DNA of 64,000 nt. Origin: a virus (lineage: Duplodnaviria > Caudoviricetes). A program made the position numbers and the translations under genes. The DNA lies in IMG/VR virus record IMGVR_UViG_3300037312_000412, positions 4,466 through 68,465 of that record. One strand, 5' to 3'. Shown here in pieces: positions 1-16,380 of the stretch (within the stretch, counting starts at the first letter, position 1; the number at the start of each line of letters is the position of its first letter). Under the pieces are notes generated by a model, which did not search any database, was not told the origin of the DNA, and saw nothing but the letters and a program-made list of their open reading frames with translations.

Positions 1-34
1 TGACGCATTCCTCGCAACCGCCAAGGGGGTCTAA

Positions 35-949: not shown

Positions 950-962
950 TTGGAGGTGAGCC

Positions 963-1385
963 GTGTCTGGCTCGGCGATGACATTCGACATCGACAAGGT
1001 GGGGCCGCTCTGCGTCCTCATCGTGTCATGGACTTCGGACTCTTCGACAGGAGCTGTCACCGGCACCTCTCCGAAGATCACCGGAACGCTGGTCAAAGGA
1101 CAGACGATTCCCAGCGGAACCGCTGTTCCGAGCGACAACTACGACATCAACATCACGGACGAATCGAGCATCGACGTGCTCACGGCATGCCAGAGCAATC
1201 TGACGAACCGCGACACGTCAAACCACGAGGAAGCCTATTTCCTCGTGACCAATGCAGACGGCACGCCCAGCGCTTCGAGTGCCCATCCGGTCGTTTGCGA
1301 CAAACTCACTGTCGCAATCACCAATGCCGGAAATGCGACCAAGGGAACCATCCGCATCTACTACATCCCCGGTGCTAAGTCGTGA
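963..1385 (+). CDS. Hypothetical virion protein (beta-rich, Ser/Thr-rich)
   Basis: GTG start after GGAGG; overlaps the next gene; located in the morphogenesis module. Confidence 0.65.
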   Translation: MSGSAMTFDIDKVGPLCVLIVSWTSDSSTGAVTGTSPKITGTLVKGQTIPSGTAVPSDNYDINITDESSIDVLTACQSNLTNRDTSNHEEAYFLVTNADGTPSASSAHPVVCDKLTVAITNAGNATKGTIRIYYIPGAKS

Positions 1386-1993
1386 CGGGAATCTTCACTT
1401 GGTTTCATCAGGTCTGGCCGGATTCGTCCGTCAAGTACGGCATCCGCCAGACCGTTGCTCCCGAATCTACCGTGGTGACGGTGGACGACGCCAAGCATCA
1501 CTGCCGCATCGATACGAGTTTTGACGACGACTACGTGAACGGGCTGATCCTGGCAGCAGAGTCAGCATTGCAGAAGGAATACGGCTGCCAGTTTTTAACT
1601 GCGACGTGGCAACTCGTTCTCGACTACTTCCCGCCCACAATTCGCGTCCCGATTAGCCCTCTGCAGTCGGTGACCAGCATCACTTACGACGACGTGCAAG
1701 GAAATCAGCAGACGCTCGATACCTCGTGGTATCTGGTGGACGACGTGCGACAACCGGCTCGCATCCAGCCCTCTTACGGGCATGCGTGGCCGCCGACATA
1801 CACGGTTCTGAACCCCATCACAATCACGTTCACCGCAGGCTATGGCGATGAAGCGGCATCCGTACCAGCCGGTTGTGTCCACGCCATCAAGCTCTACGTC
1901 AATGCGCTCTATCAGAACCGCGAACCGACCGAGATGGAATGGAGCACCATCGGCAACCTGATGATCGATGTGAACCGTGGTATCTACGCTTAG
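1382..1993 (+). CDS. Head-tail connector (gp6/gp15-like adaptor)
   Basis: Motifs VTVDDAKHHCRID..DDDYV..LILAA, PLQSVTSITY.D, ITFTAGYG, AIKLYVNALYQNRE. Confidence 0.88.
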   Translation: MTGIFTWFHQVWPDSSVKYGIRQTVAPESTVVTVDDAKHHCRIDTSFDDDYVNGLILAAESALQKEYGCQFLTATWQLVLDYFPPTIRVPISPLQSVTSITYDDVQGNQQTLDTSWYLVDDVRQPARIQPSYGHAWPPTYTVLNPITITFTAGYGDEAASVPAGCVHAIKLYVNALYQNREPTEMEWSTIGNLMIDVNRGIYA

Positions 1994-2342
1994 GGAACTC
2001 AAAGCCGGCGAACTGAGACACCGGATCCAGTTTCAATACAACTCCGCGGTGGCGGACGCAGACACAGGTACACAGGATCCCGCTGGACCGTGGAAATTGC
2101 TGTTCGAGTGCTGGGCGAAGATTGAGGACTTGAGTGGCAGTGAACAGTGGCTGGACGAAACAAACAGGGCGATTGCCTCACATCTGATTACCTGCCGGGG
2201 AGCGAGAGAACTCGGAACACTGACGGCAGCCATGCGGATTCAGTCGCTCGATAACCAGCAGCTCTACGGAATCGTGAACATCAACGACGTTGAGGAGCGT
2301 GGGGTGCGGATGGAAATCGCCTGCATGCGAGAAACAGGATGA
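1977..2342 (+). CDS. Head closure / head-tail joining protein
   Basis: AGELRHRI.FQ and WAKIE.LSG.E motifs; gene order. Confidence 0.85.
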   Translation: MVSTLRELKAGELRHRIQFQYNSAVADADTGTQDPAGPWKLLFECWAKIEDLSGSEQWLDETNRAIASHLITCRGARELGTLTAAMRIQSLDNQQLYGIVNINDVEERGVRMEIACMRETG

Positions 2343-2893
2343 GTGGTTTGACCGGAGTCCGGAAGCTCGACCGCAAGCTCCAGGCTCTCGACCGGAAAGT
2401 GCAAAAGAAGCTCATCAGGTCTGCGGTCAATAAGGCGCTGACGATCGCGAAGAAAGCGATTCAAGCGGAAATCCCCGGTAGATATCCCGACCTCAAAAAA
2501 GCGGTCGGCAAGCGGCTGAATAAAGCGAAGACAGGGAATCAGAAGGGGCAAACGGTTGGCAAGGTGGGCGCTGCGGTCGGCATGAACGCCAAACGTCGCG
2601 CGAAGATGGCCGAGAAGAAGGGACCACGCAAGCGACCCGGAGTTGGAATCGGACCGGAGAACGCGCACTGGTTTTTGGTTGGGACGGGACAGCGGACACG
2701 CGGCTATCGGCGGATTCGAGTCAAAAGCGGCTGGAGAAGGAAGCGGACAACGCATCCGATTCAGTCCACTGGACGCATGAAGCCAGTTGCCCCGAATGCG
2801 GTCAAAAGAGGATTCGAAAAGTCGGCGGCGCAGCAGATGGAAAAGATTCGCTCCTCGCTTGAGGACGGGATTGCCAAGGAAGCCAAGGCGTGA
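2339..2893 (+). CDS. HK97 gp10-like tail completion protein
   Basis: LTGVRKLDRKL..L, HWFLVGT, TGRM.P..AVKRGF; gene order. Confidence 0.8.
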   Translation: MSGLTGVRKLDRKLQALDRKVQKKLIRSAVNKALTIAKKAIQAEIPGRYPDLKKAVGKRLNKAKTGNQKGQTVGKVGAAVGMNAKRRAKMAEKKGPRKRPGVGIGPENAHWFLVGTGQRTRGYRRIRVKSGWRRKRTTHPIQSTGRMKPVAPNAVKRGFEKSAAQQMEKIRSSLEDGIAKEAKA

Positions 2894-3321
2894 TTGAGAG
2901 CGGAATCAGAACATTGCTCGGGGCGCAGTCCTCAATCACGAATCTGCTGACATCGCAGACCATCGGAACAGTGACGTTTAACGGGATTTTCGTTCAGCAG
3001 GCGAAGCAGGGATTCATTCCACCGTTCATCGCCATCAAGCGGATCGAGCGTGATCCGATGGCATGTCTCGACGGGACGGTCGGAATGATGTCCAGCGACA
3101 TCGTGGTGAGTTGCGTGGCGCTGACATCAGACAAGGCGGATGCAGTGGCAAAAGCGGTCACGGATTACTTCAAGGATTACACGGGCGCGGCGGGTTCCGA
3201 CACCATCGACGCGGTGATTTGGACCGATGCACCCACGGACGAAATCGCGGACCCAGCCGGCGGCGAAGTCGCGTGGAAGTCGGTGGACCTCGAATTCACG
3301 GTACAGCACCACACGACATGA
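2890..3321 (+). CDS. Tail terminator protein (DUF3168-like)
   Basis: Size, PPFIAI.RI motif, position just before the tail tube gene. Confidence 0.75.
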   Translation: MIESGIRTLLGAQSSITNLLTSQTIGTVTFNGIFVQQAKQGFIPPFIAIKRIERDPMACLDGTVGMMSSDIVVSCVALTSDKADAVAKAVTDYFKDYTGAAGSDTIDAVIWTDAPTDEIADPAGGEVAWKSVDLEFTVQHHTT

Positions 3322-3500
3322 AAATCGACTGGGACCAGGGGCTCTGGCGCGTGTGCGACCTCAACGGGAATGTCCTGCAGCGAGCGAAGCACATCGTCAT
3401 CACCAAGCCGGTGGAACTCATCATCGAACGCGGCAAGCACGGTTGGGCAGTGACCTCTGGGGAATTAACGCAACACGGCGACACGCTGTTTATCACATAG
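3318..3500 (+). CDS. Small hypothetical protein
   Basis: ATGA-coupled start MKIDWDQG; fills the gap before the tail tube gene. Confidence 0.55.
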   Translation: MKIDWDQGLWRVCDLNGNVLQRAKHIVITKPVELIIERGKHGWAVTSGELTQHGDTLFIT

Positions 3501-3509
3501 GAGCAGAAC

Positions 3510-3929
3510 ATGGCGAAAGTTCCCTGCAAGGGCACCTCCCTGAAAATGACGATCAGCATGTCGCTTACGGCGGTCTCGCAGATCATTTCGATGGACCTCC
3601 CGAAGCCGGAATCGGAGACCTACGACTCCACGACTCTCGACCAGTCGAATGCGTGGAAGACCTACGACCCGACCGGCTATTCCGAGCCCGGCGAACTCTC
3701 GGGCGAGTTGTTCTACGACCCGGCTGCTGCTTCCCATGTCGCGCTCTCGGCACTCGTGGCGAATCCCGCATCGAACGCCTGCGAGATCGGCTACATGGAC
3801 TCCGGCACGACCACGCAGGACTTCAACGCGACAGGTTTCTCGCTCGGTGCCACGGTCGCGATGAACGATGGGCTCAAGGGCGAATTCAAGCTCAAGGTCT
3901 CCGGCAACCCCGGCTATCCCACCTCGTAA
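3510..3929 (+). CDS. Major tail (tube) protein
   Basis: GGAG RBS; ETYDSTTLD..WKTY.PTG.SEPGELSGELFYDP, typical siphovirus tail-tube pattern. Confidence 0.85.
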   Translation: MAKVPCKGTSLKMTISMSLTAVSQIISMDLPKPESETYDSTTLDQSNAWKTYDPTGYSEPGELSGELFYDPAAASHVALSALVANPASNACEIGYMDSGTTTQDFNATGFSLGATVAMNDGLKGEFKLKVSGNPGYPTS

Positions 3930-3941
3930 CGAAGGCGAGCA

Positions 3942-4352
3942 ATGAAGGCGAAGATTATCCGCGACGACATCCAGGTCTCTGGTCCGATTCCGGACAGCCT
4001 GAAAGACCAGGTTGCGACGAAGAACGTCAAGCGCAACGGCCGCATGGTGGACCTCCCGTTCTGGAAGGTTGGCGCTGTGTTGGAGCACCGCGAAGCGTGG
4101 CTGCTGGTGCTCTCTGGTTGCGCCGAAGCCGCCGACGACGAATGCAAGGCGAAGGTCAATCGCACTCCCGAACAGCAGAAAGCGGCGGAACTGGCGTACA
4201 GCCGGATTGCCGCTGGCATCGTCCCGAAGGACTTCGAGGCGTTCAACGCCGGCTACATGGTCGGCTATACGCCGAAGGGTGACTGGATTCCCGGTCCGAA
4301 CTACGCGGAATACGTGAAGCAGAAGGAGGCGTCCGAGAATGGCGCTGCGTGA
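3942..4352 (+). CDS. Hypothetical protein between tail tube and chaperone genes
   Basis: 136-aa ORF, tightly packed in the operon. Confidence 0.7.
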   Translation: MKAKIIRDDIQVSGPIPDSLKDQVATKNVKRNGRMVDLPFWKVGAVLEHREAWLLVLSGCAEAADDECKAKVNRTPEQQKAAELAYSRIAAGIVPKDFEAFNAGYMVGYTPKGDWIPGPNYAEYVKQKEASENGAA

Positions 4353-4656
4353 TTTGAAGTCGAAACCCCGCACGGTGCCGATCGGCGATACCACGGTCTT
4401 CGTGCGGTCGCTGACGCTCGGCGAAATCGAGCAGGTGGGAACGCTCGAAAAGACCGACGGCGTCGGCTCGTTGAAGCTCATGCTGTCGCTCGGGCTGGTG
4501 AACGAGGACGGCTCTCCATGCACTGCCGACGACATCGCGGCGGTCCCGATGGAATGCGTGGACCAACTCACCGACGCGATTCGCAAGGCGTCCACTCCGG
4601 GGAGCGTGGACACCATCGTAAAAAACTCCGAAACGACCAGCGCACCATCTTCCTGA
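4339..4656 (+). CDS. Tail assembly chaperone (gpG-like)
   Basis: VFVRSLTLGE motif; lies two ORFs before the tape measure gene; carries a slippery site. Confidence 0.8.
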   Translation: MALRDLKSKPRTVPIGDTTVFVRSLTLGEIEQVGTLEKTDGVGSLKLMLSLGLVNEDGSPCTADDIAAVPMECVDQLTDAIRKASTPGSVDTIVKNSETTSAPSS

Positions 4657-4952
4657 TGCGGCTTGCCGACGACGCTGGTCGGCTCCACGAATGGCGAACA
4701 CTGGCGGCAGAACTCACCCCGCAGCAACTCGCGGAACTCCAGGCGTATCGAAGGCTGTACCCGTGGCAGGATGACCGCGACGACCTGCGACACGCTCTGA
4801 TGACCTCGGTTGTGGCGGGAGCGTGGGGCGGGGAAGTCGATGTCGGCGAACTAGCGATGTACATGGAAAAAATGCGGGAGCAGTCACTCGAAGAGAACGT
4901 GCTCTCGCCCGAGGCTGCCGCTGCAATGATGCGCGGCTTGTTGTCGAGGTAA
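4339..4952 (+). CDS. Tail assembly chaperone gpGT-like product of a programmed -1 frameshift
   Basis: A-AAA-AAC at 4620-4626 is in frame with the chaperone; the -1 frame stays open to 4952 (IFLMRLA..TLAAELTPQQLAELQAYRRLYPW). Confidence 0.8.
4620..4626 (+). other. -1 ribosomal frameshift slippery heptamer AAAAAAC
   Basis: X-XXY-YYZ pattern in the correct phase (GTA AAA AAC). Confidence 0.85.
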
Positions 4953-4955
4953 CGG

Positions 4956-6608
4956 ATGGCTGCCTCAGTCGGCGACCTGGTCGCCAATCTGAACGCGAAC
5001 ACGACCGGATTTACCAAGGGGCTCACGAAGGCCCGCGGTGAACTCTCCGGGTTTTCGTCGTTCGCAGCCAGCGCTCTGTCTGGAATCGCGATTGGCGGCG
5101 GAGTTGGGGCAGTCACCGCGCTGATTTCCGGACTAAAAAGTCTCGGGACATCCGCCTTCGGAACGGCGAAGGAGATGGTGGGACTCGCCGCAACCGCTGA
5201 ATCGAATCAGGTTGCGTTCTCGACGATGCTGGGATCCGCCGACAAGGCGAAGACCGTTCTGGCGCAGATCACCGACCTGGCTGCAAAGACCCCGCTCGAA
5301 ACGTCGGAACTGGTGAGCGCCGGACGCTCCCTCATCGCGTTCAAGCACTCCGCCGAAGAGGTTGTGCCGACGCTCCGCATGCTGGGCGACATCTCTTCGG
5401 GCGTGCAGCAGCCCATCGGTGAGATTGCCGAGATTTACGGCAAGGCTCGCGTGCAGGGTCGACTCTTCGCGGAGGACATCAACCAGTTCACCGGGCGCGG
5501 CATCCCGATTATTCAGGAACTCGCCAAGCAGTTCGGCGTTGGCGACGAAAAGGTCCGCAAGCTGGTTGAGGACGGCAAAGTCGGTTTCCCGCACCTGCAG
5601 AAAGCCTTCATGGCGCTGACCGCCGATGGCGGGAAGTTCCACGGGATGATGGAGGCGCAGTCGAAGACCCTCGCAGGGCTCTGGTCCACGGCGAAGGATA
5701 ACGTCGCCATCGCCATGAAGGGCATCGGCGAGACCATCGTCGAGTCGTTCGGGCTGAAAGACTTGCTCGCGGACTCCAACAGCTTCGCCGAGACATTCCA
5801 GAGCGAGTGGCTGCCGGCGATTCAGGGGACCGTCCAAGCGGCGGGAGAGGTGTTCCGCGGTGTCGTGGACGGGATGAAGGCGGCGTGGAATGGCTGGTTG
5901 GGAGAGACGTTTGAATTGCTGAAGTTCGGTGTTCAGAACTGGGACATCCTGTTCGACATCGCACTCGAACACTTCATTCTGTTTGTCCACAACATTCCCG
6001 AATACTTCTCGACAGCGATGACCAACGTCGTCGAAATCCTGTCGTGGATGGGAGAGAACTGGTTCGACATTCTCAAGACGATGTTGAGCGTTGAGGAAAC
6101 GGTACTCAAGAATCTCGCATCGAATGCCGTCGGCTATTTCAAGGAGATTTTCGACTACTACTACAGCCTTGGGGATGACCCGGTTGAGTTTCAGTTCAAA
6201 GGACTGACAGAGGGGTTCAAGAACTCCATCAAGGAACTGCCGAAGCTCACCGAGGCAAATTTGGCGACTACGACGCCGCGACTGGAATCTCTGTATTCGC
6301 AACTTGGATCGCGTGAAGCGGAGGCGAATAAAAAGGCAGTCGCGCAGGCCGCGGGGGTGGCAGCTCCAGGAGAATTGAAAGTCACCGACACCTTCAAAAC
6401 CGAAGGGAAAAAGCACAAGGATACTGTTGCCGCTGCGCTGCAGGGATCCAAAGAGGATCTATCCGCTGTTGCTGCTGCCGTCAACGGGACTCGCGGCAAG
6501 AATCCCCTTGAGAAGATCGGCAATCAGCAGCTTGGCGAACTGAAAGCCATCCATACCGAGATTGCAAAGGTCGGAAAAACGCCAGCGGTTGTGCGGAGGG
6601 GGCTCTAA
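4956..6608 (+). CDS. Tape measure protein (550 aa)
   Basis: N-terminal VGDLVANLNANTTGF; tape-measure domain TPLETSELV..GDISSG..GKARVQGRL.AEDINQF.GRGIPI. Confidence 0.95.
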   Translation: MAASVGDLVANLNANTTGFTKGLTKARGELSGFSSFAASALSGIAIGGGVGAVTALISGLKSLGTSAFGTAKEMVGLAATAESNQVAFSTMLGSADKAKTVLAQITDLAAKTPLETSELVSAGRSLIAFKHSAEEVVPTLRMLGDISSGVQQPIGEIAEIYGKARVQGRLFAEDINQFTGRGIPIIQELAKQFGVGDEKVRKLVEDGKVGFPHLQKAFMALTADGGKFHGMMEAQSKTLAGLWSTAKDNVAIAMKGIGETIVESFGLKDLLADSNSFAETFQSEWLPAIQGTVQAAGEVFRGVVDGMKAAWNGWLGETFELLKFGVQNWDILFDIALEHFILFVHNIPEYFSTAMTNVVEILSWMGENWFDILKTMLSVEETVLKNLASNAVGYFKEIFDYYYSLGDDPVEFQFKGLTEGFKNSIKELPKLTEANLATTTPRLESLYSQLGSREAEANKKAVAQAAGVAAPGELKVTDTFKTEGKKHKDTVAAALQGSKEDLSAVAAAVNGTRGKNPLEKIGNQQLGELKAIHTEIAKVGKTPAVVRRGL

Positions 6609-7513
6609 TGGCAGTCCTCTCCATCAATCGCATTTCGGGAGAATCTTCGGATTACTCGAAGATCATCGACAGCAGCGCAAGCCTGCAGTGGCTGGCGAAG
6701 GTGTCGAGCCGGCAGGACAAAGGGAAAGACATCCTGCTGTATGGCTGGAACAACGAAATTCTGCCGTTCCCATTCGAGGATTTCTTTCCCGATTCGCCAA
6801 TCCTCTCCTGTCGCCACATTAAGGCGGAACAGGACAAATCCGCACCGCTCAAGTGGATTGTCACCGCCGACTATTCCAGCGAACCGCTGATCCAGGCGGA
6901 CAAGGACGAGGTGAAGGAAGAGAACCCGTTAATGCGGCCGGCGCGCATTAAGTGGTCCACGAACAAATACCTCAAAGGCATCAACAAGGACATCAACGGC
7001 AAAGCCATCGTCAATTCTGCCGGGGATTTCTTCGACCCAACGGTCGAGATCGACTGCTCCCACTGGACGGCAACAATCCAGAAGAACCTGCCGTGGGTGC
7101 CAAGCTGGCTCATCGACTACGACAACACTATCAACTCGAAGTCGTTCAACATCCAGGGGCTGACTATCCAGCCCTACAAGGCTCGTATCGACGAAATCGA
7201 GATCAGCGAGCCGCAGGAGCAGAACGGATATGAGTTCGTCGTCTTCACGTACAAGCTCGAATTCCGTGGAGAGGGATTCAAGTTGGTCGTGCAGGACCAG
7301 GGGATGAGACAGAAGGTCGCGGCGGGCATTGTGGACGGCAAAGCCACATACAACTGGGTGAAGTGCAAGAACGATGACGGATCCGACGTGACCGCCCCGG
7401 TTCCTCTGGACGGAAGTGGGGGGCAACTCGAAAACCCCACCGTGGACACCATCAAATACCTGTCGTTCGACGGCTACAACGCGCAGGACTTCAACGTCCT
7501 GCCATTGGAATAG
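6608..7513 (+). CDS. Probable distal tail/hub protein
   Basis: Directly follows the tape measure gene (TAATG overlap); beta-rich. Confidence 0.6.
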   Translation: MAVLSINRISGESSDYSKIIDSSASLQWLAKVSSRQDKGKDILLYGWNNEILPFPFEDFFPDSPILSCRHIKAEQDKSAPLKWIVTADYSSEPLIQADKDEVKEENPLMRPARIKWSTNKYLKGINKDINGKAIVNSAGDFFDPTVEIDCSHWTATIQKNLPWVPSWLIDYDNTINSKSFNIQGLTIQPYKARIDEIEISEPQEQNGYEFVVFTYKLEFRGEGFKLVVQDQGMRQKVAAGIVDGKATYNWVKCKNDDGSDVTAPVPLDGSGGQLENPTVDTIKYLSFDGYNAQDFNVLPLE

Positions 7514-7522
7514 GAGTTTTCA

Positions 7523-7987
7523 ATGAGATTCACGGGAACGGGAACATTCGACGCCGGGTTTATCTTCGACACGCACGTCAACAGCAACGCCGGCATCGAC
7601 GTGTCGAAGATGGAGCATGCACTTCCCAAGGGCACCAATTTCAACACCGCGATCGGCGGCACGCCCGCTACCCGCGAAGAACTCGTCCACTGCTTCACTC
7701 AGGACGGGCGCATCGTTGGGTTTCACGCATTGCTGAACGCCGTTGGCAGCGGTACCAGCATTGTGTTCGACCTGAAAAAGAACGGGACGAGCATTCTGGG
7801 TGCCGGCACAGTCACCATCACGAACTCCGACACCTCGGGGCAGACCTACGATGGCACGCTGACCGCGAGTCCGACCGCATGCGTCGCCGGCGACAGGATC
7901 TCTATTCTGATGACCGTGGGCAGTTCCACCGGAGCGCAGGGCGCGTTCGCGTGGGCGGAGATCATCGAGGACACCGCGACCTCGTGA
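7523..7987 (+). CDS. Hypothetical tail protein
   Basis: GGAG RBS; Gly/Thr-rich; position in the tail module. Confidence 0.6.
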   Translation: MRFTGTGTFDAGFIFDTHVNSNAGIDVSKMEHALPKGTNFNTAIGGTPATREELVHCFTQDGRIVGFHALLNAVGSGTSIVFDLKKNGTSILGAGTVTITNSDTSGQTYDGTLTASPTACVAGDRISILMTVGSSTGAQGAFAWAEIIEDTATS

Positions 7988-7988
7988 T

Positions 7989-9191
7989 ATGCCTGACGCA
8001 ATTGTTGCCTTTGATTCCGAAGATTCCTTTGACCGCATGGCCCGTGTGGTCCATCGGGAGGAGCGTTCGTATCGCCAGCGGCTGAACCGTCCCCAGAGAG
8101 GAAGGTATCAGGGCGAGCAGGAACAAATCCTCTGCGGTCGCATCGTCAGCAGTCTTTCGCAGTACGGGACATGCGCCGTATTGCTGACAATCGCAGATGG
8201 AAACGGCAGTGAAGTCGCGTTTGAGCCGGCGCAGACATACACGGTCTGGGATCGGCGCGGAGATGCGAGTCCCGCTATCACGTCAGTTAGCAGCGTGCAG
8301 ACAATCACGCTGAACTCAGGAACCACGAGCGGCAACGGCATTGTCAGCACCAGCGCCGGGGACACCGGCAGCGTGGTGTACAACGAAACCGCGAGCCAGT
8401 TCCAAACGGAGATGGATACGCTCTTCGGGGCGGGTAACACGGTCGTCTCTGGCGGTCCGCTGGGCACTGCGGCACTGACTATCACATTTCAGGGCACGCT
8501 CGCGGGAGTCGATGTCCCGACGTTCTCCCTTGGGACGAACAGCTTCTCTGGCGGAAGCAACCCCGGCTTGACATTCGCGACCACGACTGCCGGCATTGAA
8601 TGGCGGTGCGATTTTCGGTTCAGCAGCCAGTTCGGGAAGTTTGTTTTCGAGAACATCCCGTGCCAAGGGATTTCGTCGAGTAGTTCCTCATCGTCCAGCA
8701 GTTCTTCCAGTTCTTCGAGCAGTTCAAGCTCAAGTAGTTCTTCAAGCTCGTCCAGCAGCAGTTCCTCAAGCTCTTCTTCGTCGAGTTCGAGCAGCTCGTC
8801 CTCCAGCAGTTCTTCGAGTTCTTCGTCATCAAGCAGCATCAACCCGAATTGCGCGGCGTGCAGCAGTGCGGCGAGTTCCTACACCCTGGGTATCACCGCC
8901 CCGTCGAACGGAACGTGTTCGAATTGCGGCGGAATCGCAGGGTCATTCAGCCCGATTGCTCGCGTGTCTGATTGCAACTGGACATTAGTTACCAGCACTG
9001 CGATTTGCAGTGGCTTCCTGCATATCAATATCTCATATAGCGGCGGCACGACGACGCTCACGATGACAGACGGGACGAGCACGATTGCCACCTATACTGC
9101 CGCGGCGTGCCCATCAAGCGGATTGTCGCTGACGCGGGCATCCAATAGCGGCGCATGCACCAGTTGGCCCACGACAGTCACGATTTCATGA
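7989..9191 (+). CDS. Tail tip/fibre protein with an Ig-like module, a 55-Ser tract and a Cys-rich C-terminal domain
   Basis: VQTITL..G..SG...YN.TA..Q..D.L.G.GN.VVSGG..TITFQG module; poly-Ser; 8 Cys after the tract. Confidence 0.75.
   Translation: MPDAIVAFDSEDSFDRMARVVHREERSYRQRLNRPQRGRYQGEQEQILCGRIVSSLSQYGTCAVLLTIADGNGSEVAFEPAQTYTVWDRRGDASPAITSVSSVQTITLNSGTTSGNGIVSTSAGDTGSVVYNETASQFQTEMDTLFGAGNTVVSGGPLGTAALTITFQGTLAGVDVPTFSLGTNSFSGGSNPGLTFATTTAGIEWRCDFRFSSQFGKFVFENIPCQGISSSSSSSSSSSSSSSSSSSSSSSSSSSSSSSSSSSSSSSSSSSSSSSSSSSSSSSINPNCAACSSAASSYTLGITAPSNGTCSNCGGIAGSFSPIARVSDCNWTLVTSTAICSGFLHINISYSGGTTTLTMTDGTSTIATYTAAACPSSGLSLTRASNSGACTSWPTTVTIS
8673..8837 (+). repeat. Poly-serine tract (55 codons)
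   Basis: Counted codon by codon; all six Ser codons are used with no nucleotide periodicity. Confidence 0.97.
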
Positions 9192-9655
9192 CTCCTGCCC
9201 AAGCCGCCGCCATCGCAGACCAAATCGAAGGCTGGATGTATCCGGACGAACTGCTCTGGATCGCACAGACCGCGGCCACTTGTCAGCGATGGCTGGAGAT
9301 CGGCGTGCATCGCGGTCGCAGCCTGACGGCCGCCGCGCTTGTGTGTCCGGAAGTCTACGGCGTGGATCCCGAGATGCCCGCGCACATCGAAGCTGACGCG
9401 ACGTTCTTGCGACTTCCAAGCCTCGCGGCCGTCACGCGATTCCCAGACGGCTACTTCGACGCGGTATTCATCGACGGGGATCACAGCTACGAGGGCGTGA
9501 AGGCCGACATTGCCGCGTGGCGACCGAAAACGAAAGGGCTGCTCTGCGGACATGACTATGGAAAGAGTGATTTGCCTGGCGTGACGCAGGCGGTGGATGA
9601 GGCGTTTGGCGTTCCCGAGCGTGGGTCCGGGAGCATTTGGTTTGTGAGGGTTTGA
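9188..9655 (+). CDS. Class I SAM-dependent methyltransferase (Methyltransf_24-like)
   Basis: LEIGVHRGRS and DAVFIDGDHSYEGVKADI..W.P..G.LCGHDY; ATGA overlap with the poly-Ser gene. Confidence 0.9.
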   Translation: MTPAQAAAIADQIEGWMYPDELLWIAQTAATCQRWLEIGVHRGRSLTAAALVCPEVYGVDPEMPAHIEADATFLRLPSLAAVTRFPDGYFDAVFIDGDHSYEGVKADIAAWRPKTKGLLCGHDYGKSDLPGVTQAVDEAFGVPERGSGSIWFVRV

Positions 9656-12561
9656 TGCACATTTTCATCGCCGGCTACGCCGGTCACTGCGGCGGAGCGG
9701 AAACCGAAACGCTGCATCTCTGTGATGCGTTTGTGAAAGCTGGCATCACTCCCCATCTGGTCCCGCTCGGCGAGCCGGATAAGGAGTGGCGAGAACAGAC
9801 CGACGCCATCGGCTGCATCACGCACAGATACTCGCCCGACATCTTCGCGGGGCAAGTCGTGCTTAATCTCTGCAACGGCGACCATCTGCGGAAGCTCCCA
9901 GAGATTTACGCCAACGGTCCACCGAAGGCGTACATTTTCGGGGACTGCATGGCGCGTCAGGTCTACGGGCAGGACGCACATCGCGCGGGACATATTACGC
10001 ACTTCCTGTTTCAGTCGCAGTACCAGCGGAATAATCACCTGCCAGAGTTGGAGAAAATCGCCCCGGTGACGGAGTTGACCGGCTACCGCCCGTATTTCTC
10101 GTGGCAACGGGGCACTGAGGATGGACTGTGGGCTCCCGGCTGTCCCTGCAACAAGCTAGATGGCACGTTCAACGTCGGGCGACTGTCGCGCGATGACTAC
10201 TACAAGTTCCCGGATGCGTTCTGGAAAAACTGGCAGGAGATCCGCGCAGAGAAGCCGGTCCATTTCTGGGTTCTGGGTTATGGGCAGAACGCCCGGAATC
10301 GCTGCGGCGAGCCCCCGAGCGGCGACACGTTCCACGTCTACCCCGCGTACGCGATGCCCGCGGCGGATTTCGTCTCCCGGCTCGATGTGCTGATCCATAC
10401 CACAGGCGGCAGCGGCGAGAACTGGCCGCGGGTGCTGTTCGAGGCGTGGGCAAGCGGCGTGGTGCCGATTTTCGAGCGCGACACAGGCGCATCGGAGATT
10501 ATCACCGACGGTGTTGACGGGTTTCTCGTCCGCTCTGGGGACGAAGCCGCAGAGCGTGCCTCGCAAATTGCACAGGATGACGCCCTACGCACACGGCTGG
10601 TCAAAGCCGGATATGAGACGCTACTCCGCGAGCACTGCAGCGTGGAACGCAGCGTGGGGCCGTTCCTGCCGTTGCTGGAGGGTTGCCCGGAGGTAACGGC
10701 GGACCCGATGCCGAAGCGTGGAACGCTCGATGTGTCCCGTATTCGCGCCATCAACGACTCTCAGAACGCGATTGTGCAGAAATCGACGCGGTTCATGGTG
10801 GCGCAGTGGCACATCGCGGACGGCAAGGTGCATCTCGACCGGCACACGCACGACTTCCCTAAAGAGGACATGGCGAGGGCGCTCGCGATGCTGTCGGCTG
10901 ACTTGGGGCAGCCCGCTCCCGCCCCTGAGAAACGAGACGGGCAAATCAAGAATCTCTGCATCTGCCACTGGGGCCACTCCCGCAGCGTCTGTCTCGCGCG
11001 TCTGCTCCACGGGAAGGGACAGGCGGCGGTTGCCATCGGGTTCGCCTCAAGCGGCGGCGCAATCGCCCCGCTGAGCGCATGGGCGGATCGGATCTTCGTC
11101 CTACAGGCGGATTATGCGAAGTATGTGCCTGCCGAGCATGCGGCAAAAGTCGTCGTGATGGATGTCGGACCCGATGTGTGGGCGAATCCGTACAACGCTG
11201 ATCTGCGGGCGAAGCTGGAGGGGATGTACGCGGCGTGGGAGCAGTCTCAGTTACCCCGCAAGCTCACCATCGCCTGCCAGACGTTCCCCGGAAGTCCCAT
11301 GCCGGAAGTCTGCCGCGAAACGTGGATCCCACGCGCCCGCGAACTCGGTATTGAGGTGCTGTTCTATTCTGGCGGAGGAGAAGGACAGGATGGCGATACC
11401 TGCTCCTTCCCTGTCCGCACCGACTATGGAGGCCACACTGAACGCACGAACGCACTGCTGCAGTGGTTCTCCCAGACGCATCCGAACACCTGGCTGTTTG
11501 ACGGCGACGACGACACGCTTGTGGCTCCCGAGCGTATGCTGGCGTACCTGGAGACCGCAGAGGAGTACTGCGGCTGGGACCTCGGCGCGTACGGCTCCGG
11601 CGGCGCGGGTGTGCTGCTCAGCCCGCGCGCCGTTCGGATTCTCGCGGACAATCCGCTCCCTGATCCGAGCGGATGGGATGACATCCAGATTGGCGAAGTG
11701 CTCCGAGCGCACGGAATCAACCTGACGCACGACGAACGCTTCCGCCCGTGGTGCAACAGCGACCCAAACGACGGCAACGAACCGGGACCGCAGAACGCCT
11801 ACATTACCGGACACTGCAAAACGCCCGCGCGAGATCCGTACCCGCACCGTATCGCTCTAATGCGGAAGGCGTGGGCGGATCTGACGAACCGTAAACTGAC
11901 GATTGGTGTGATGACCTTCCCTGGCAGTCCTCTCGCAAACGCCTGCCGAGAGACCTGGGTGCCTCGCGCGCGCGAGTTGGGCGTCGAAGTGCTGTTCTAC
12001 AGTGGCTCAAAGAAGCCCTGCTGCGGTCAACCGTGGGAGACGAGACAGGAAGGCGACTTGCTCCAGTTCGCGGCCGAGCCCGACTACGCGCACAGTTGCG
12101 ACCGAATGGAGGCGTTCGCTCAATGGATGTCGCAGAATCGTCCCGGCCATTGGCTGCTGGGCGTGGATGATGACACGCTCGTTTTGCCTGATCGACTCTT
12201 GGCGATGCTGCCGAGCGTGGGCGAATACGTCGGCTGGGGCTGCGATGCCAATCACCGGATCGGACACGGCGGCGCGGGCTACATTCTCTCGCCGCAGGCT
12301 GTTGCGCTCATCGCGGAAAAGGGGCTCCCGCCGACAGGGCATCACGACATCGAAATCGGCAATGTGATGTACGACAGTGGCGTGGTGTTCACGCACGATA
12401 CGCGGTTTCGCCCGCATCGTAATTCGGTGCCTGGGGACGATAACGAGCCGACGCGAAAGAACGGATACGTGACGTGTCACTGCAAGTCGGGGGCAATTGG
12501 AGATGATCCGCACGCCGACAGAATCAGGCTGATGCGGCGGATCTGGGCGGAGGTGGCGTGA
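9655..12561 (+). CDS. Multidomain glycosyltransferase: GT-B (GT4-like) + CX5R phosphatase-like + two Fringe/GT31-like domains
   Basis: GGAETE; ENWPRVLFEAWASGV.PI..ITDGVDGFLV; CHWGHSRS at 10963-10986; tandem RKLTI..TFPGSP..CRETW.PRARELG repeats at 11257 and 11890, each with DDDT and GGAG..LS. Confidence 0.85.
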   Translation: MHIFIAGYAGHCGGAETETLHLCDAFVKAGITPHLVPLGEPDKEWREQTDAIGCITHRYSPDIFAGQVVLNLCNGDHLRKLPEIYANGPPKAYIFGDCMARQVYGQDAHRAGHITHFLFQSQYQRNNHLPELEKIAPVTELTGYRPYFSWQRGTEDGLWAPGCPCNKLDGTFNVGRLSRDDYYKFPDAFWKNWQEIRAEKPVHFWVLGYGQNARNRCGEPPSGDTFHVYPAYAMPAADFVSRLDVLIHTTGGSGENWPRVLFEAWASGVVPIFERDTGASEIITDGVDGFLVRSGDEAAERASQIAQDDALRTRLVKAGYETLLREHCSVERSVGPFLPLLEGCPEVTADPMPKRGTLDVSRIRAINDSQNAIVQKSTRFMVAQWHIADGKVHLDRHTHDFPKEDMARALAMLSADLGQPAPAPEKRDGQIKNLCICHWGHSRSVCLARLLHGKGQAAVAIGFASSGGAIAPLSAWADRIFVLQADYAKYVPAEHAAKVVVMDVGPDVWANPYNADLRAKLEGMYAAWEQSQLPRKLTIACQTFPGSPMPEVCRETWIPRARELGIEVLFYSGGGEGQDGDTCSFPVRTDYGGHTERTNALLQWFSQTHPNTWLFDGDDDTLVAPERMLAYLETAEEYCGWDLGAYGSGGAGVLLSPRAVRILADNPLPDPSGWDDIQIGEVLRAHGINLTHDERFRPWCNSDPNDGNEPGPQNAYITGHCKTPARDPYPHRIALMRKAWADLTNRKLTIGVMTFPGSPLANACRETWVPRARELGVEVLFYSGSKKPCCGQPWETRQEGDLLQFAAEPDYAHSCDRMEAFAQWMSQNRPGHWLLGVDDDTLVLPDRLLAMLPSVGEYVGWGCDANHRIGHGGAGYILSPQAVALIAEKGLPPTGHHDIEIGNVMYDSGVVFTHDTRFRPHRNSVPGDDNEPTRKNGYVTCHCKSGAIGDDPHADRIRLMRRIWAEVA

Positions 12562-13829
12562 TGGGACGCGGGCGCGGGAGATGCTGCTGCGGTTGCGCTA
12601 TCGACTATTACGACTTGATCGTATTCGGAGGTGCCTACAAGTCGAATTCGGACGGCACGTTCAGCGCTGCTGCTGGGTTTATGCCGCCGACTGGAATCGA
12701 CTTTGACGACGATGGACCGAATGGCGGCGACTATCGCAACGACGACAACTTCTTTCTGATCCGCAGGCCCACGAAATACTTGCTACCCTCGTACTACGGC
12801 ACATTTCAGCTCTATCAGGCCTGTTCGAGCGCTCCGACGTTCATCAACTCGCCTCAGCAACCGACAGGCGTTGGCGGCCTCGGTTTCGTGCCTGGGGTCG
12901 GCGCGTTCTCGCAGGGACCGATCGGGTACATCTGCAATTACACCTACGAGACAAACACTTCGAACGTCTACTCGGTGTCGTCTTCGGGCTGCACGATGAT
13001 CGCTCAGATGCCGTCGAGCACGGGCTACCCGATGTGCTGGAGCGGTGACGATTTCATGGCGGTCTGCCCACCGTCAGGTTCGCTCACTGGTGGCAGCGCG
13101 ACATCAACCGACAACATCGCGTACACATTCGACGGATCGACCTTCACAGCCCAGACAACTGGCAGTATTCCGTTGCCCGCAGACAGCGGCGGCGGCTACG
13201 CATCGATCTACAGAATCTTCGGTCCGTACAGTAGCAGTATAAGCCAGATCGGCGGATCTGGAGGGGGGATCTTTGCCTGGAACGGGAGCACGCTCGGGTT
13301 TTGGCTCCTGGCCTCGGGGACAGGCGGCGGTGCAGACGGCTTCGTGACGATGCAGAGAACCGGAAACGACCTATCGGCAGGGACAGCTTTCGCGCTGACT
13401 GTGGCGAACGACAGTATCGCATCGGATTCTCTCGCGGACTCCGCCGGAGCATTTGCGATCAGTCCAGACGGGAGCATTATTGCATTTTCTGCGAGTTCAT
13501 CGGATGCAGGCACCTTCAATCCGCTTTATCCGCCTCGCGATGGCGGCGGCAGGAGTCGCCGCAATCGAATCCACATCTACAAAAACGGCACCCTCACCGC
13601 AAACGTTCTGCCGGCGAACGCGATCAGCGATTCTCTGATCTACCAGATGAGCATCAGCGACGACGGAAAGGCGCTTGTCGCCTGTTCTGAAACAGCCAGC
13701 GGGAGCATTCCGAACCCCGGAAATACCACCACCTACAAAATCAACAGCGACGGCAGCCTGACGCAGTTGGATCAGAAGGGGCCGGGGCGAGTCGCGTTCT
13801 TTTCTCACCAGTACCGCTGCCCGGTGTGA
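12558..13829 (+). CDS. Putative receptor-binding tail protein (beta-propeller-like) with an N-terminal CCCGC motif
   Basis: GTGA overlap; AISPDGSIIAF and MSISDDGKALV blade motifs; Gly/Ser-rich. Confidence 0.6.
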   Translation: MMGRGRGRCCCGCAIDYYDLIVFGGAYKSNSDGTFSAAAGFMPPTGIDFDDDGPNGGDYRNDDNFFLIRRPTKYLLPSYYGTFQLYQACSSAPTFINSPQQPTGVGGLGFVPGVGAFSQGPIGYICNYTYETNTSNVYSVSSSGCTMIAQMPSSTGYPMCWSGDDFMAVCPPSGSLTGGSATSTDNIAYTFDGSTFTAQTTGSIPLPADSGGGYASIYRIFGPYSSSISQIGGSGGGIFAWNGSTLGFWLLASGTGGGADGFVTMQRTGNDLSAGTAFALTVANDSIASDSLADSAGAFAISPDGSIIAFSASSSDAGTFNPLYPPRDGGGRSRRNRIHIYKNGTLTANVLPANAISDSLIYQMSISDDGKALVACSETASGSIPNPGNTTTYKINSDGSLTQLDQKGPGRVAFFSHQYRCPV

Positions 13830-14080
13830 CGATGGATCTGCCGCCATTCAGAACCCGGATCGTCAACTTTTTTAGGACATTCGTCGCGCACGTCGGGAAC
13901 GACATGCGGATCGTGCCTCAAGAGAAGTTGGAGGAGCGGCTTTCCATCTGCGAGACAAACGCTTGCGGCCACTTCACGGGAACGCACTGCGCTCAATGCG
14001 GATGCCCAGCGAACAGCGAAAGCGTGTTCTTCAACAAGGTCGCGTGGGAGTCCAGCAAGTGCCCTGATGGCCGCTGGTGA
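13826..14080 (+). CDS. Small Cys-rich protein ending the tail operon
   Basis: RLSIC...C......CAQCGC........K......CPDGRW pattern. Confidence 0.7.
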   Translation: MTMDLPPFRTRIVNFFRTFVAHVGNDMRIVPQEKLEERLSICETNACGHFTGTHCAQCGCPANSESVFFNKVAWESSKCPDGRW

Positions 14081-14081
14081 C

Positions 14082-15719
14082 TCACTCGACGAAGCTGTGA
14101 AGGATCGTCAGATCTCGCATCGACTGCGTCGGCACGTCGTAGTACCGGATATGAATGGCTATCGCCTTCATGTCGTGCCAGTCGTCAGAGCCGGGCCAGC
14201 CCGCTTCTCCTGCGTCGTCGATGCCGTTGATCTTGTCGTCATCGATCCCAGCAACCCCTGGCTGACCATCAATTCCGGTGTCGAAGTTTCGGAACGGGGC
14301 CACATCCACCGAGGCGTCAGCGGTCCATGTGTCGTAGACGTTTTTGTTGTAGCCCGCGGCGGTGTTCGGGTTGTTGTTGCCATAGTTCACGCTCTGGGAC
14401 GTGAGATACTTCGAGGCGTTCGTGCCGCCAATGTCCACGAACATCCCGGTCATCCCTGTGATCGGGTTGGTGGCCCAGTCGTCCCAAACCTTGATGTCGA
14501 ACTCGTGGACGTTCGTCGCCAGCAGATCGTGAGAGACGCGAGTCCCGTTGAATTGATTGCCGTTGATCGTGGCGAAGCCGTTGGCGTTGACGGCAGTCGT
14601 CGAGGCGGTCAATGGGCAGGTGTCGTCTCCGGTGTAATAAACGCCATCCGGTCCGTATCCCGGAGAGCCCGGCCAACTGAATCCAGGGTCGCTCGTCTCC
14701 ATCTGCGTGAAGCGGCCGATGTAGCTCTGATCGGCGGTATACTCCATTGAGTGCGGAATCACACTGGATGTTCCGGGCGCGAAGCCCCAGCGATTCTGCG
14801 GCTGCCCCATGCTCATCGGTCGGCCGTTGAAGTTATCGAGAGCGCCGCTCTGAACACCCACAAACCGGAGTCCGCCGCTCCATGTCGCCGAATAGTCGAA
14901 GTCACCCCAAAAACTCGCATTAGCGAAGCCGAAGCCATTCGACAGCGGGTTATCCGTGTTCGATGGGGACGACGGGTTCCAGATCATGCCGGCGGTGTAA
15001 ACCGTCGCGTTGGGGATCAACGCCGTTCCATCTGGCCGAAGCGGCTGGTCGTCGGATTTCGTGCCATCAATCGGCTGCCGGATCAGCATCTGTCGGCGGT
15101 AGAGATTGCCGTTCCGAAGGAAGTAGGCGATCTCGGCGTAGCCCGATGTTCCGGTCTGGTCCGAGGTGAGAGCGCCGGTTGAATACCGCCCGGCCTGATC
15201 GTCGAACACCGGCTGATCCGGATTGTGCTGCAACAGGTCGCGGGCGCTGGTGTCGTTTGGCGGGGAAAATGGACCGTTGTCGGAGCCGAACTGGAGCGCG
15301 CGTCCGTAGAATGTCGGCGTTTCGAAATTGTTCGAGGCGTTACTCGCGTCAACCGTAAACTGGATCATGTCATCGATCTGGTCGTTCGGGTTGTTCTCGG
15401 CGATATAGACGTAGCCGCGGGCGTACGATGCCATCAACGGGGACTTGCTTGGGGTCTTGTCGCTCGACGCGAGTGCCCGAATTCCGAACTCGCCGTGAAT
15501 CTGCCGGTAGCTGCGGCTGCTCAGATCTCCCCGGATCAGGATGTTGAGCATGCGGGCTTTCTGGTCGTTCTCCGCGACGCCCTTCATCTTCGACATGCTC
15601 TTGGTGGCAATCGAAAACACTTCTCCGAACATCGCCAACATCAGGCAGACGAGGGCAACGGCGACGAGCATTTCGACCAGGGTGAAGCCCGAACGGCGAT
15701 TTGGGGCGTGTTTCTTCAC
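14082..15719 (-). CDS. Prepilin-type N-terminal cleavage/methylation protein (type IV minor pilin/GspJ-like), 545 aa
   Basis: GTG start after AGGAG; MKKHAPNRRSG|FTLVEMLVAVALV class III signal; EIAYFLRNGNLYRRQMLIR; DGQPGVAGIDDD..GIDD acidic loop; C-terminal RDLTILHSF. Confidence 0.92.
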   Translation of the reverse strand: MKKHAPNRRSGFTLVEMLVAVALVCLMLAMFGEVFSIATKSMSKMKGVAENDQKARMLNILIRGDLSSRSYRQIHGEFGIRALASSDKTPSKSPLMASYARGYVYIAENNPNDQIDDMIQFTVDASNASNNFETPTFYGRALQFGSDNGPFSPPNDTSARDLLQHNPDQPVFDDQAGRYSTGALTSDQTGTSGYAEIAYFLRNGNLYRRQMLIRQPIDGTKSDDQPLRPDGTALIPNATVYTAGMIWNPSSPSNTDNPLSNGFGFANASFWGDFDYSATWSGGLRFVGVQSGALDNFNGRPMSMGQPQNRWGFAPGTSSVIPHSMEYTADQSYIGRFTQMETSDPGFSWPGSPGYGPDGVYYTGDDTCPLTASTTAVNANGFATINGNQFNGTRVSHDLLATNVHEFDIKVWDDWATNPITGMTGMFVDIGGTNASKYLTSQSVNYGNNNPNTAAGYNKNVYDTWTADASVDVAPFRNFDTGIDGQPGVAGIDDDKINGIDDAGEAGWPGSDDWHDMKAIAIHIRYYDVPTQSMRDLTILHSFVE

Positions 15720-16027
15720 GGCGAATCTCCTACTTGGATCCCAGCCCGTCTGCTGTAAGTCCCAACCTGCGTCCCGCCCATCATCAACCGGATTTCCCCA
15801 TCGCCAGCGGCTGCCCGCAACTCTGGCTCGATTCGGTGGAAGTCGCTCGCCCAAACGCTCAGAGAGCCAGTATCGGTGAAGTTCTGAACGTGCCCGGTTG
15901 CTGCAGCTCGCTCCAGCGCCGACAGGTCGCGCGGACTGGTATCGGCTCGCGGCTTCATGGCAACCCAGATCGCAGCCACGATACAGGTCATCACCGCCAG
16001 AATCGAGACGACGGCGCGGCTACTCAC
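15716..16027 (-). CDS. Small membrane-anchored protein coupled to the pilin gene
   Basis: N-terminal hydrophobic segment; GTGA overlap with the pilin start. Confidence 0.7.
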   Translation of the reverse strand: MSSRAVVSILAVMTCIVAAIWVAMKPRADTSPRDLSALERAAATGHVQNFTDTGSLSVWASDFHRIEPELRAAAGDGEIRLMMGGTQVGTYSRRAGIQVGDSP

Positions 16028-16184
16028 GGCTCAGATCCTCAAGCATCTCCACGAGCGCCCCCTTGAGAGCGGACCGCTCTTCGAAGGGAAGCTCTTTGCT
16101 CCGGATGACCTTGAGATACCGGCGGACCACGCCCTTCAACGTCAACAGTTCCTGCTCGACTGATTCCATCAGCACTGCCGTCAT
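16020..16184 (-). CDS. Small helical hypothetical protein
   Basis: MTAVLMESVEQ...; 8-nt overlap with the next gene. Confidence 0.55.
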   Translation of the reverse strand: MTAVLMESVEQELLTLKGVVRRYLKVIRSKELPFEERSALKGALVEMLEDLSRE

Positions 16185-16380
16185 GATTTCGACCCCACGA
16201 AACACCGAAACCCGCGCATCCTGGGGCAAGCAGAAATGCCGGGCCGGTGCCGGACGAAACGTCCGTGTTTCAGTATTTCCTGCCCGCCTTGCCCGCGGGC
16301 ACTGTTCAGCGTACCGAGATTCAGCAACGAGTGCCAATATTGGCTGGATCAACCAGTTACGAAAACGTAACAAAACCCAG

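Follow-up and report, generated by a model that had tools for sequence, protein, structure and literature searches.

We analyzed a stretch of 64,000 nucleotides (hereafter, the window), bases 4466–68465 of the 68,465-bp IMG/VR virus record IMGVR_UViG_3300037312_000412, and found that the late tail operon of this phage contains a gene for a 400-amino acid (aa) protein with 55 consecutive serines, followed by translationally coupled genes for a Methyltransf_24-type methyltransferase and a 968-aa glycosyltransferase (GT) fusion. The most likely explanation, in which we place moderate confidence, is that the phage encodes a cytoplasmic system that O-glycosylates its own virion protein, with the acceptor encoded next door to the enzymes. 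Sequence comparisons with other phages and with bacterial genomes support the view that homologous GT31-like and methyltransferase enzymes recur beside Ser/Thr-tract proteins far above chance.

A poly-Ser protein coupled to two enzymes

The features of the three genes are listed below by window position and strand, with the evidence for each assignment in brackets. These include open reading frames (ORFs), G+C content at third codon positions (GC3), AlphaFold2 (AF2) models with their predicted local distance difference test (pLDDT) scores, and family or structure matches; SAM stands for S-adenosylmethionine and LMW-PTP for low-molecular-weight protein tyrosine phosphatase.

7989–9191, +, poly-Ser virion protein, 400 aa, proposed glycan acceptor (ORF, GC3, AF2 model)
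8286–8603, +, virion-surface decoration domain, aa ~100–205 (608 relatives, PHROGs, AF2, Foldseek)
8673–8837, +, 55 consecutive Ser codons, aa 229–283, bounded by Cys225 and Cys288 (ORF translation)
8838–9188, +, C-terminal Cys-rich beta domain, aa 284–400 (strands at aa 345–399, pLDDT 66–78)
9188–9655, +, Methyltransf_24 class I SAM methyltransferase, 155 aa, or 166 aa from 9155 (PF13578, 6.9e-12)
9655–12561, +, 968-aa GT fusion (GT4, spacer, CX5R(S) insert, two GT31/Fringe-like domains)
9655–10680, +, GT4-type GT-B domain, aa 1–342 (PF13692, 2.3e-11; PF00534, 1.2e-9)
10687–10941, +, conserved spacer segment, aa 345–429 (conserved in the relatives P0002 and P0003)
10942–11244, +, inserted CX5R(S) domain, putatively a mini LMW-PTP-like domain, aa 430–530 (motif CHWGHSRS, aa 437–444, at 10963–10986)
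11260–11889, +, GT31/Fringe-like GT-A domain 1, aa 536–745 (PDB profile, fold search, DDD and GGAG motifs)
11890–12558, +, GT31/Fringe-like GT-A domain 2, aa 746–968 (50% identity to domain 1, DDD and GGAG motifs)

The overlaps by which a first-pass annotation of this DNA had joined the three genes were confirmed. ATGA at 9188–9191 links the poly-Ser gene to the methyltransferase gene, and TGATG at 9653–9657 links the latter to the glycosyltransferase gene, which begins at ATG 9655 (a TTG upstream, at 9637, is also open). At the far end, GTGATG at 12558–12563, readable as GTGA or TGATG, connects the glycosyltransferase gene with a gene for a 423-aa protein. The ATG of the poly-Ser gene lies 1 nt past the TGA of the preceding gene (7523–7987). 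For the methyltransferase, a public collection places the start at ATG 9155, and either this start or that at 9188 is possible.

The serine tract was found to be exactly as long as annotated. All six Ser codons occur in it in a near-even mix (AGC 12, TCG 11, AGT 11, TCC 7, TCA 7 and TCT 7), and Tandem Repeats Finder detected merely two 9-nt fragments. Because the codons are mixed and no tandem DNA repeat is present, the homopolymer is kept at the protein level and not by DNA slippage. No other Ser/Thr tract was found in the window. In the AF2 model, the 400-aa protein consists of a helix (aa 11–32), a folded region (aa 100–205, pLDDT 97), a disordered region (aa 231–342) and a beta domain (aa 345–400). 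With serine at 55 of 55 positions between the pLDDT-97 domain and the beta domain, the tract falls within the definition of polyserine linkers (length from about 40 residues, Ser content from 80%, position between folded modules; PMC2699552).

When 1.84 billion representative proteins were searched in full with HMMER, aa ~95–205 had 608 relatives and proved to be a module of ~100 aa that is often found in tandem. PHROGs families of tail sheath, major tail, minor tail and head-decoration proteins contain this module as an inserted or added part. Its best Foldseek matches in PDB came from the tail tip and capsid of Bxb1, from phage Patience, and from the sheaths of Milano and A-1(L). The designation of the product as a tail protein, at first an assumption, is thus supported by the relatives of the decoration module, PHROGs, the AF2 model and the PDB fold matches, all of which mark it as a virion protein. 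None of the 150 best relatives of the module had a Ser run longer than 5, which makes the tract a lineage-specific addition. The C-terminal domain was weakly similar (E 0.06–0.08) to the first domain of the tract proteins at two Planctomycetaceae loci described below (L198 and L200).

No close relative of the poly-Ser protein was detected in the viral, metagenome or genome contig collections or in the GenBank phage collection. Its membership in a tail family (family X) of two viral loci, L025 and L053, was considered and dropped, as a profile search gave no match and pairwise comparison gave an E value of 1.5. Besides, the protein was missing even as a self-match from two large protein collections, though its neighbors were returned. 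Low-complexity proteins may be under-represented in protein collections, which would hide poly-Ser homologues; since its own product seems absent from the searched collection, the orphan status of this protein is weakly established.

The second gene was correctly described in the first pass as encoding a Methyltransf_24-like enzyme (PF13578, 46.6 bits against a cut-off of 26.3). The protein has a DGDHSY core and a glycine-rich motif, and residues E37, G39, D96, H99, H122 and D123 are invariant in 25 relatives. The protein collection contained 240 relatives, and viral contigs at least 446. When 150 ORFs flanking the gene at 38 viral loci were classified with Pfam, the commonest recognizable neighbors were glycosyltransferases of many families (GT2, GT4, GT25, GT17, GT47, GT92, GT10 and rhamnosyltransferase). 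Also, some phage relatives were fused to GT32-like, FkbM or Maf-like (PF01973) domains, the last of which we take to be of the flagellin-glycosyltransferase type. These neighborhoods and fusions support a link between this methyltransferase subfamily and glycans in phages. The enzyme also matched phrog_2675, labeled 'DNA methyltransferase' (2.9e-14), with the match restricted to the Methyltransf_24 core of the 599-position profile; this label is uninformative because the profile corresponds to Maf-like and methyltransferase fusions. Phage proteins of ~650 aa with Maf-like and Methyltransf_24 domains were observed at L008:1063–3048, L011:5333–7267 and L033:5324–7318, an FkbM and Methyltransf_24 fusion in L060, and a GT32-like and Methyltransf_24 fusion in L072. 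In addition, the viral contig region L037:2141–7537 contained a Fringe-like ORF, several unannotated ORFs and two tandem Methyltransf_24 genes in one block.

The 968-aa enzyme had two relatives alone, P0002 (1071 aa) and P0003 (656 aa), among 5.8 billion clusters, and no close relative in the viral, metagenome or genome contig collections. The three-way alignment with these proteins divided it into five segments. The four parts previously proposed (a GT-B domain, a CX5R domain and two Fringe/GT31-like domains) were all present, but a further conserved segment (aa ~345–430) had been missed, and the CX5R region proved to be an insertion of ~100 aa that is absent from both relatives. The GT4 assignment of the N-terminal domain was well above the Pfam cut-offs (44.6 bits vs 27 for Glyco_trans_1_4, PF13692, and 38.4 vs 26.4 for PF00534); its EX7E motif is intact (ENWPRVLFE, aa 255–263) and its PDB matches were BshA-type. 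The spacer segment had no family match and was modeled by AF2 at pLDDT <50.

Both C-terminal domains possess the acidic and glycine-rich motifs of GT31 enzymes (DGDDDT at aa 616–621 and DDD at aa 838–840; GGAG at aa 649 and aa 872). The whole protein scored 23.8 bits on Pfam Fringe (PF02434), borderline against a cut-off of 21. Domain 2 alone gave 5.7e-4 with Galactosyl_T (PF01762) and 7.7e-4 with Fringe, each copy by itself being below the Pfam cut-off. A profile of the three homologues matched B3GLCT (1.2e-9), C1GalT1 (4.2e-7) and also B3GNT2 in PDB. When the model of copy 1 was compared with 48,161 chains using VIA-align, the top six matches were all GT31-type chains, namely B3GalT6 (Z 17.0), B3GalT5 (16.9), Manic Fringe (16.5), CHSY3 (16.2), C1GalT1 (16.1) and B3GNT2 (15.2), vs Z ≤13.9 for the remaining, non-GT31 glycosyltransferase folds; sequence identity in the GT31 alignments was 15–25%. 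Fringe, C1GalT1 and B3GLCT extend a sugar that is already O-linked to Ser or Thr of a protein.

The CX5R insert was modeled by AF2 at pLDDT <50 and had no Pfam or PDB sequence match. Its motif CHWGHSRS conforms to the CX5R(S/T) P-loop of the LMW-PTP/ArsC-like family (PF01451). The ESM Atlas model of the insert matched an LMWPc-bearing cluster (template modeling score, TM, 0.85) and three clusters of stand-alone viral proteins of ~105 aa (TM 0.82–0.89), which points to a common small phosphatase-like phage protein behind these model matches. We treat membership in PF01451 as a lead only. In P0002, an N-terminal hexapeptide acyltransferase is present instead of a separate methyltransferase; hexapeptide acyltransferases are commonly tied to sugar modification.

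Ser/Thr-tract proteins beside homologous enzymes

A pilin gene of the phage has its sole relative in the genome collection in a metagenome-assembled genome (MAG) of Planctomycetaceae, and bacteria of this family are the predicted host group. A search with the GT31-like region identified 7 loci in 4 of 398 Planctomycetaceae genomes and none in the 401 genomes of a phylum-wide sample. In four of the seven loci (L198, L199, L200 and L202), the gene immediately upstream on the same strand encodes a Cys-rich protein with Cys-bounded Ser/Thr tracts of 21–113 residues. In L198 and L200, this protein is 411 or 478 aa long with Thr/Gly-rich tracts; in L199 and L202, its place is taken by a protein of 526 or 489 aa whose tracts, S11 and (SSSSSP)n, reach 113 residues. 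Every tract had the Cys-tract-Cys layout seen in the window (C225…C288). As a control, we examined 20 evenly spaced 20-kb regions (400 kb) of one of the four genomes: no ORF out of 390 had a Ser/Thr fraction of at least 0.6 in any 30-residue window, vs 4 of the 95 ORFs in the seven loci.

At another of the seven loci, L203, which is cut off by a contig end, Methyltransf_24 and GT31-like domains are fused in one ORF. In L199, the tract protein is preceded by a 1195-aa enzyme (L199:13287–16871, minus strand) composed of a methyltransferase, two GT2 domains and tetratricopeptide repeats (TPR). The nearest matches of one GT2 domain were GmaR, which transfers O-GlcNAc to flagellin (3.8e-26), and the peptide S-glycosyltransferase SunS (1.4e-20). 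This GmaR/SunS-like neighbor of the tract protein marks L199 as a protein-glycosylation locus. A protein of 2770 aa is encoded downstream. Cysteines were observed to flank directly every Ser/Thr tract examined.

Scanning viral contigs with a Fringe-domain alignment gave no match. Ser-rich ORFs were present in three of 80 viral methyltransferase loci: L025, its close relative L053, and L072, an unrelated phage with 40% GC. In each, the Ser-rich ORF is just upstream of a Methyltransf_24 fusion, which is followed by GT25. Ser-rich ORFs thus occurred in 3 of 7 viral loci with GT25 vs 0 of 73 others (Fisher ~4e-4, or ~5e-3 if L025 and L053 are counted as one lineage; these values were calculated by hand, for a test selected post hoc). 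The Ser-rich protein of L025 and L053 is a member of a tail-gene family positioned after the tape measure and post-tape-measure genes, and the Ser tract is absent in 15 other members of this family, which come from phages without the methyltransferase. The Ser-rich ORF of L072 (L072:4753–5118) is 121 aa long and starts with MLLFFWCCCGSSSS. Another GT25 phage, L089, has high GC and no Ser-tract protein; it encodes a 200-aa protein made nearly entirely of CxxC/CC motifs (L089:6198–6800) just before the closing tail gene and the GT25 gene.

Tail module and phage genome

Direct terminal repeats are present, and the record has a completeness rating of 100%. Its late operon runs unbroken on the + strand from 35 to 14080, and no sigma-70-like promoter site was found inside 1–16380. 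The other features of this operon are as follows.

1382–1993, +, head-tail adaptor (phrog_442)
2890–3321, +, tail terminator (PHROGs match)
4956–6608, +, tape measure protein, marking the tail module (PF20155 TMP_3, 5.4e-21)
6608–7513, +, post-tape-measure tail protein, 301 aa (TAATG overlap with the tape measure gene)
7523–7987, +, 154-aa tail-module protein (coding-type GC3, 0.80)
12558–13829, +, 423-aa Gly/Ser-rich protein with PD40-like (S-x-D-G-S) repeats (weak PD40 match, 7.6e-4; repeat motifs)
13826–14080, +, 84-aa CxxC…CxxCGC protein, last tail-module gene (family closes tail modules in 24 viral loci)

Seven genes, from 6608–7513 through 13826–14080, are separated by gaps of at most 9 nt or overlap. 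A weak homologue of the 301-aa protein (6e-7) is encoded right after the tape measure gene at L106, L084 and L083, three viral loci. The 154-aa protein had no family match in Pfam or PHROGs scans. Homologues of the 301-aa and 84-aa genes open and close tail modules in 24 viral loci with essentially no transferases in them; because of these homologues, the methyltransferase and glycosyltransferase genes of the window are seen to lie inside the tail-module frame and not after it. The 423-aa protein (13% Ser, 14% Gly) is probably a beta-propeller tail or receptor-binding protein, judging from its repeats; its N-terminus starts with MMGRGRGRCCCGC (window 12558–12600). The 84-aa protein has the motif CxxC…CxxCGCP…CPxGxW and matched no Pfam family, and its relatives are usually ~175 aa long. 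It was considered as a third shared part of a glycosylation cassette and dropped, as its family closes ordinary tail modules without a transferase or methyltransferase.

No hydrophobic, membrane or signal segment was found in the five cassette proteins; being without such segments, they are expected to act in the cytoplasm, the site of virion assembly. A Pfam scan of these five proteins returned the GT4, Fringe, Methyltransf_24 and PD40 families alone, with no DUF1975. The phage is temperate: the record encodes a serine recombinase, and a minus-strand pilin moron and integrase are located just downstream of the cassette.

Proposed virion glycosylation, known systems and alternatives

Functionally, the cassette is nearest to two known systems and is a member of neither. 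The first-pass annotation knew of no dedicated poly-Ser acceptor encoded beside its own glycosyltransferases; such systems do exist, namely the serine-rich repeat proteins (SRRPs) of streptococci, staphylococci and lactobacilli, whose accessory Sec (aSec) loci also contain GtfA/GtfB (PMC6973325). Both systems have a dedicated Ser-rich acceptor beside its own transferases, with cytosolic GT-B priming, extension by further transferases of the same locus and possible tailoring of the glycan (by O-acetylation in SRRPs and, as proposed here, by methylation). The phage cassette differs in having no DUF1975/GtfB partner, SecA2/Y2, signal peptide or LPXTG anchor. Also, its tract is pure Ser and not a series of S-x dipeptide repeats, and it belongs to a virion part of a Planctomycete phage and not to a cell-wall adhesin.

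The other system is virion glycosylation in mycobacteriophages Che8, Corndog and Myrna (Freeman et al. 2023, as related in PMC11256854 and PMC12363180); in the literature consulted, experimental proof of glycosylated phage virions exists only for a few mycobacteriophages. There, too, structural proteins of the phage are modified by cytoplasmic glycosyltransferases that the phage itself encodes, and the product is thought to be a glycan shield. In contrast to our proposal, the glycans are reported on major capsid proteins and not on a pure-Ser acceptor tract of a tail protein. Furthermore, the mycobacteriophage transferase genes lie outside the tail operon, for example near the 3' genome end in Maravista. 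The 968-aa enzyme gave no tblastn match at an E value of 1e-3 among 50,697 GenBank phage records, in which the presence of Che8, Corndog and Myrna was unconfirmed.

Three further comparisons are relevant. Long, nearly pure Ser tracts that join folded modules are known as polyserine linkers in carbohydrate-active enzymes of Saccharophagus, Teredinibacter and Cellvibrio (PMC2699552; Howard et al. 2004), with mean lengths of 39–44 residues and 80–83% Ser (PMC2699552). Those enzymes are secreted and have no adjacent dedicated transferase, and the function of their linkers is unknown, whereas the phage tract is 100% Ser and Cys-bounded, forms part of a virion protein and has its gene coupled to those of transferases. 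Animal GT31 enzymes (Fringe, C1GalT1, B3GLCT and B3GalT5/6) share the fold and the DDD and GGAG motifs and were the best sequence and structure matches; in contrast, the phage domains are cytoplasmic, without a membrane anchor, tandemly duplicated and fused to GT4, and the identity is low. Chlorovirus PBCV-1 (Paramecium bursaria chlorella virus 1) encodes A064R, a multi-domain protein in which two glycosyltransferase domains are joined to a methyltransferase for the terminal sugar of the capsid glycan. The structure of A064R domain 1 (2p6w) had a Z of 12.3 in the fold search with the GT31-like domain. In both viruses, virus-encoded glycosyltransferases are combined with a methyltransferase; the generic GT-A fold is the sole shared feature, and PBCV-1 is a eukaryotic virus with N-linked glycans on its major capsid protein and a fused methyltransferase, that of the phage being separate. 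A full-text literature search found no paper on a polyserine phage tail protein with its own transferases; a phage system of this kind, built on a homopolymeric tract, seems not to have been published.

In our model, the tail operon is translated late in infection as one coupled unit and yields a tail-tip or decoration protein. The 55-Ser tract of this protein is exposed and disordered, and it separates the folded domain at the virion surface from a small distal one that is Cys-rich. The GT4 domain, a retaining GT-B enzyme, may prime the Ser hydroxyls with a first sugar; the two GT31-like domains, as inverting, DxD-dependent GT-A enzymes, may then extend it, and the Methyltransf_24 enzyme may O-methylate the glycan. 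The product would be a mucin-like bottle-brush stalk, ~10–15 nm if extended. Compared with bare polyserine, such a stalk would have greater stiffness and resistance to proteases, and it would keep the distal domain at a distance from the tail. In this scheme, we infer which protein is the acceptor, in what order the enzymes act, which sugars are added, that a methyl group caps them, and what biological role the product has, for which the first pass had suggested a shield, a host-surface mimic or an adhesion element.

Several observations weigh against this proposal. The poly-Ser protein has no homology to the other tract proteins detectable by pairwise or profile comparison. Among the methyltransferase relatives listed, none came from contigs of the same lengths as those encoding P0002 (59,315 bp) and P0003 (8,332 bp). 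Long polyserine linkers occur in bacterial enzymes that have no dedicated transferase (PMC2699552), and the position of the cassette in a temperate phage, with the moron and integrase just downstream, is a classic site for host-conversion genes. In the co-occurrence search suggested in the first pass, GT31-like relatives adjoined tract proteins in 4 of 7 loci and Ser-rich ORFs were found at 3 of 80 viral methyltransferase loci, but L197 and L201 have GT31-like relatives with no tract protein nearby, and 157 of 160 Methyltransf_24 loci (viral and metagenome) are without a Ser-rich neighbor. No Ser-rich ORF was found in the 80 metagenome loci among them, most of whose contigs are short. Similarly, six GT25 loci lacked tract proteins. 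Few independent lineages underlie the association statistics, which were devised post hoc, and tests of a prophage context for L198–L202 (PF10145, PF05065, PDB and phage tblastn) were negative or uninformative.

Other explanations of the cassette were considered in the light of the same data. The enzymes might serve lysogenic conversion or host-envelope remodeling, altering a polysaccharide or glycoprotein on the host surface (superinfection might be blocked in this way) while the Ser tract stays an unmodified linker. The temperate lifestyle is consistent with this, as are the location of the cassette at the distal end of the tail operon near the minus-strand pilin moron and serine recombinase and the GT4 matches, which are closest to enzymes like BshA and EpsE that act on small molecules or exopolysaccharides. 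However, the genes lie between tail genes to which they are translationally coupled, with the 84-aa closing gene downstream and no promoter-like site within the operon, and the complete record has no GT2/GtrB-type transferase; a flippase or polymerase was not noticed either, though no search was aimed at them. As conversion would also leave the pairing of such enzymes with tract proteins elsewhere unexplained, we regard it as fairly unlikely. An explanation that we consider unlikely is that the enzymes glycosylate virion proteins generally (capsid, tail tube or the 423-aa propeller-like protein), as in Che8, next to a 55-Ser tract that is merely an adjacent flexible linker. Phage glycans have indeed been reported on major capsid proteins (PMC11256854, PMC12363180), the Ser- and Gly-rich 423-aa protein is equally coupled to the glycosyltransferase, and most phage loci with Methyltransf_24 or GT25 have no Ser tract nearby. 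Against this, the window has no further Ser/Thr-rich tract, and the direct adjacency of GT31-like relatives to tract proteins in four of the seven loci stands in contrast to none of the 390 control ORFs.

Modification of phage DNA, as in T4-like base glycosylation, or of another non-protein phage component appears very improbable. GT-B enzymes do glucosylate DNA in T-even phages, and the phrog_2675 label would fit such a role, but that match is confined to the Methyltransf_24 core of a Maf-like and methyltransferase fusion profile. Because the complete record has no homologue of thymidylate synthase or dCMP hydroxymethylase, DNA glucosylation of the T4 type is unlikely. In addition, we know of no GT31-type enzyme that acts on DNA.

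O-glycosylation of the phage's own virion protein therefore remains our preferred explanation. A wider view, which we offer tentatively, is that Cys-bounded Ser/Thr tracts together with GT31-like, GT25 or Methyltransf_24 enzymes form a widespread, unpublished system for mucin-like stalks, present in Planctomycetaceae and in several unrelated lineages of uncultured tailed phages, in which the tract, perhaps recognized via its flanking cysteines, would be made into a rigid, methyl-capped brush on tail tips. If true, phages would possess an equivalent of mucin O-glycosylation in animals, based on the same GT31 fold, and the chemistry of GT31 enzymes, familiar above all from the extension of animal O-glycans, would be at work in the bacterial cytoplasm. 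The three genes would represent a compact set of acceptor, priming and extending transferases, and methyltransferase. Virion glycosylation would then reach another bacterial phylum and environmental phages, and this may provide a possible explanation for the polyserine tracts of phage fiber proteins.

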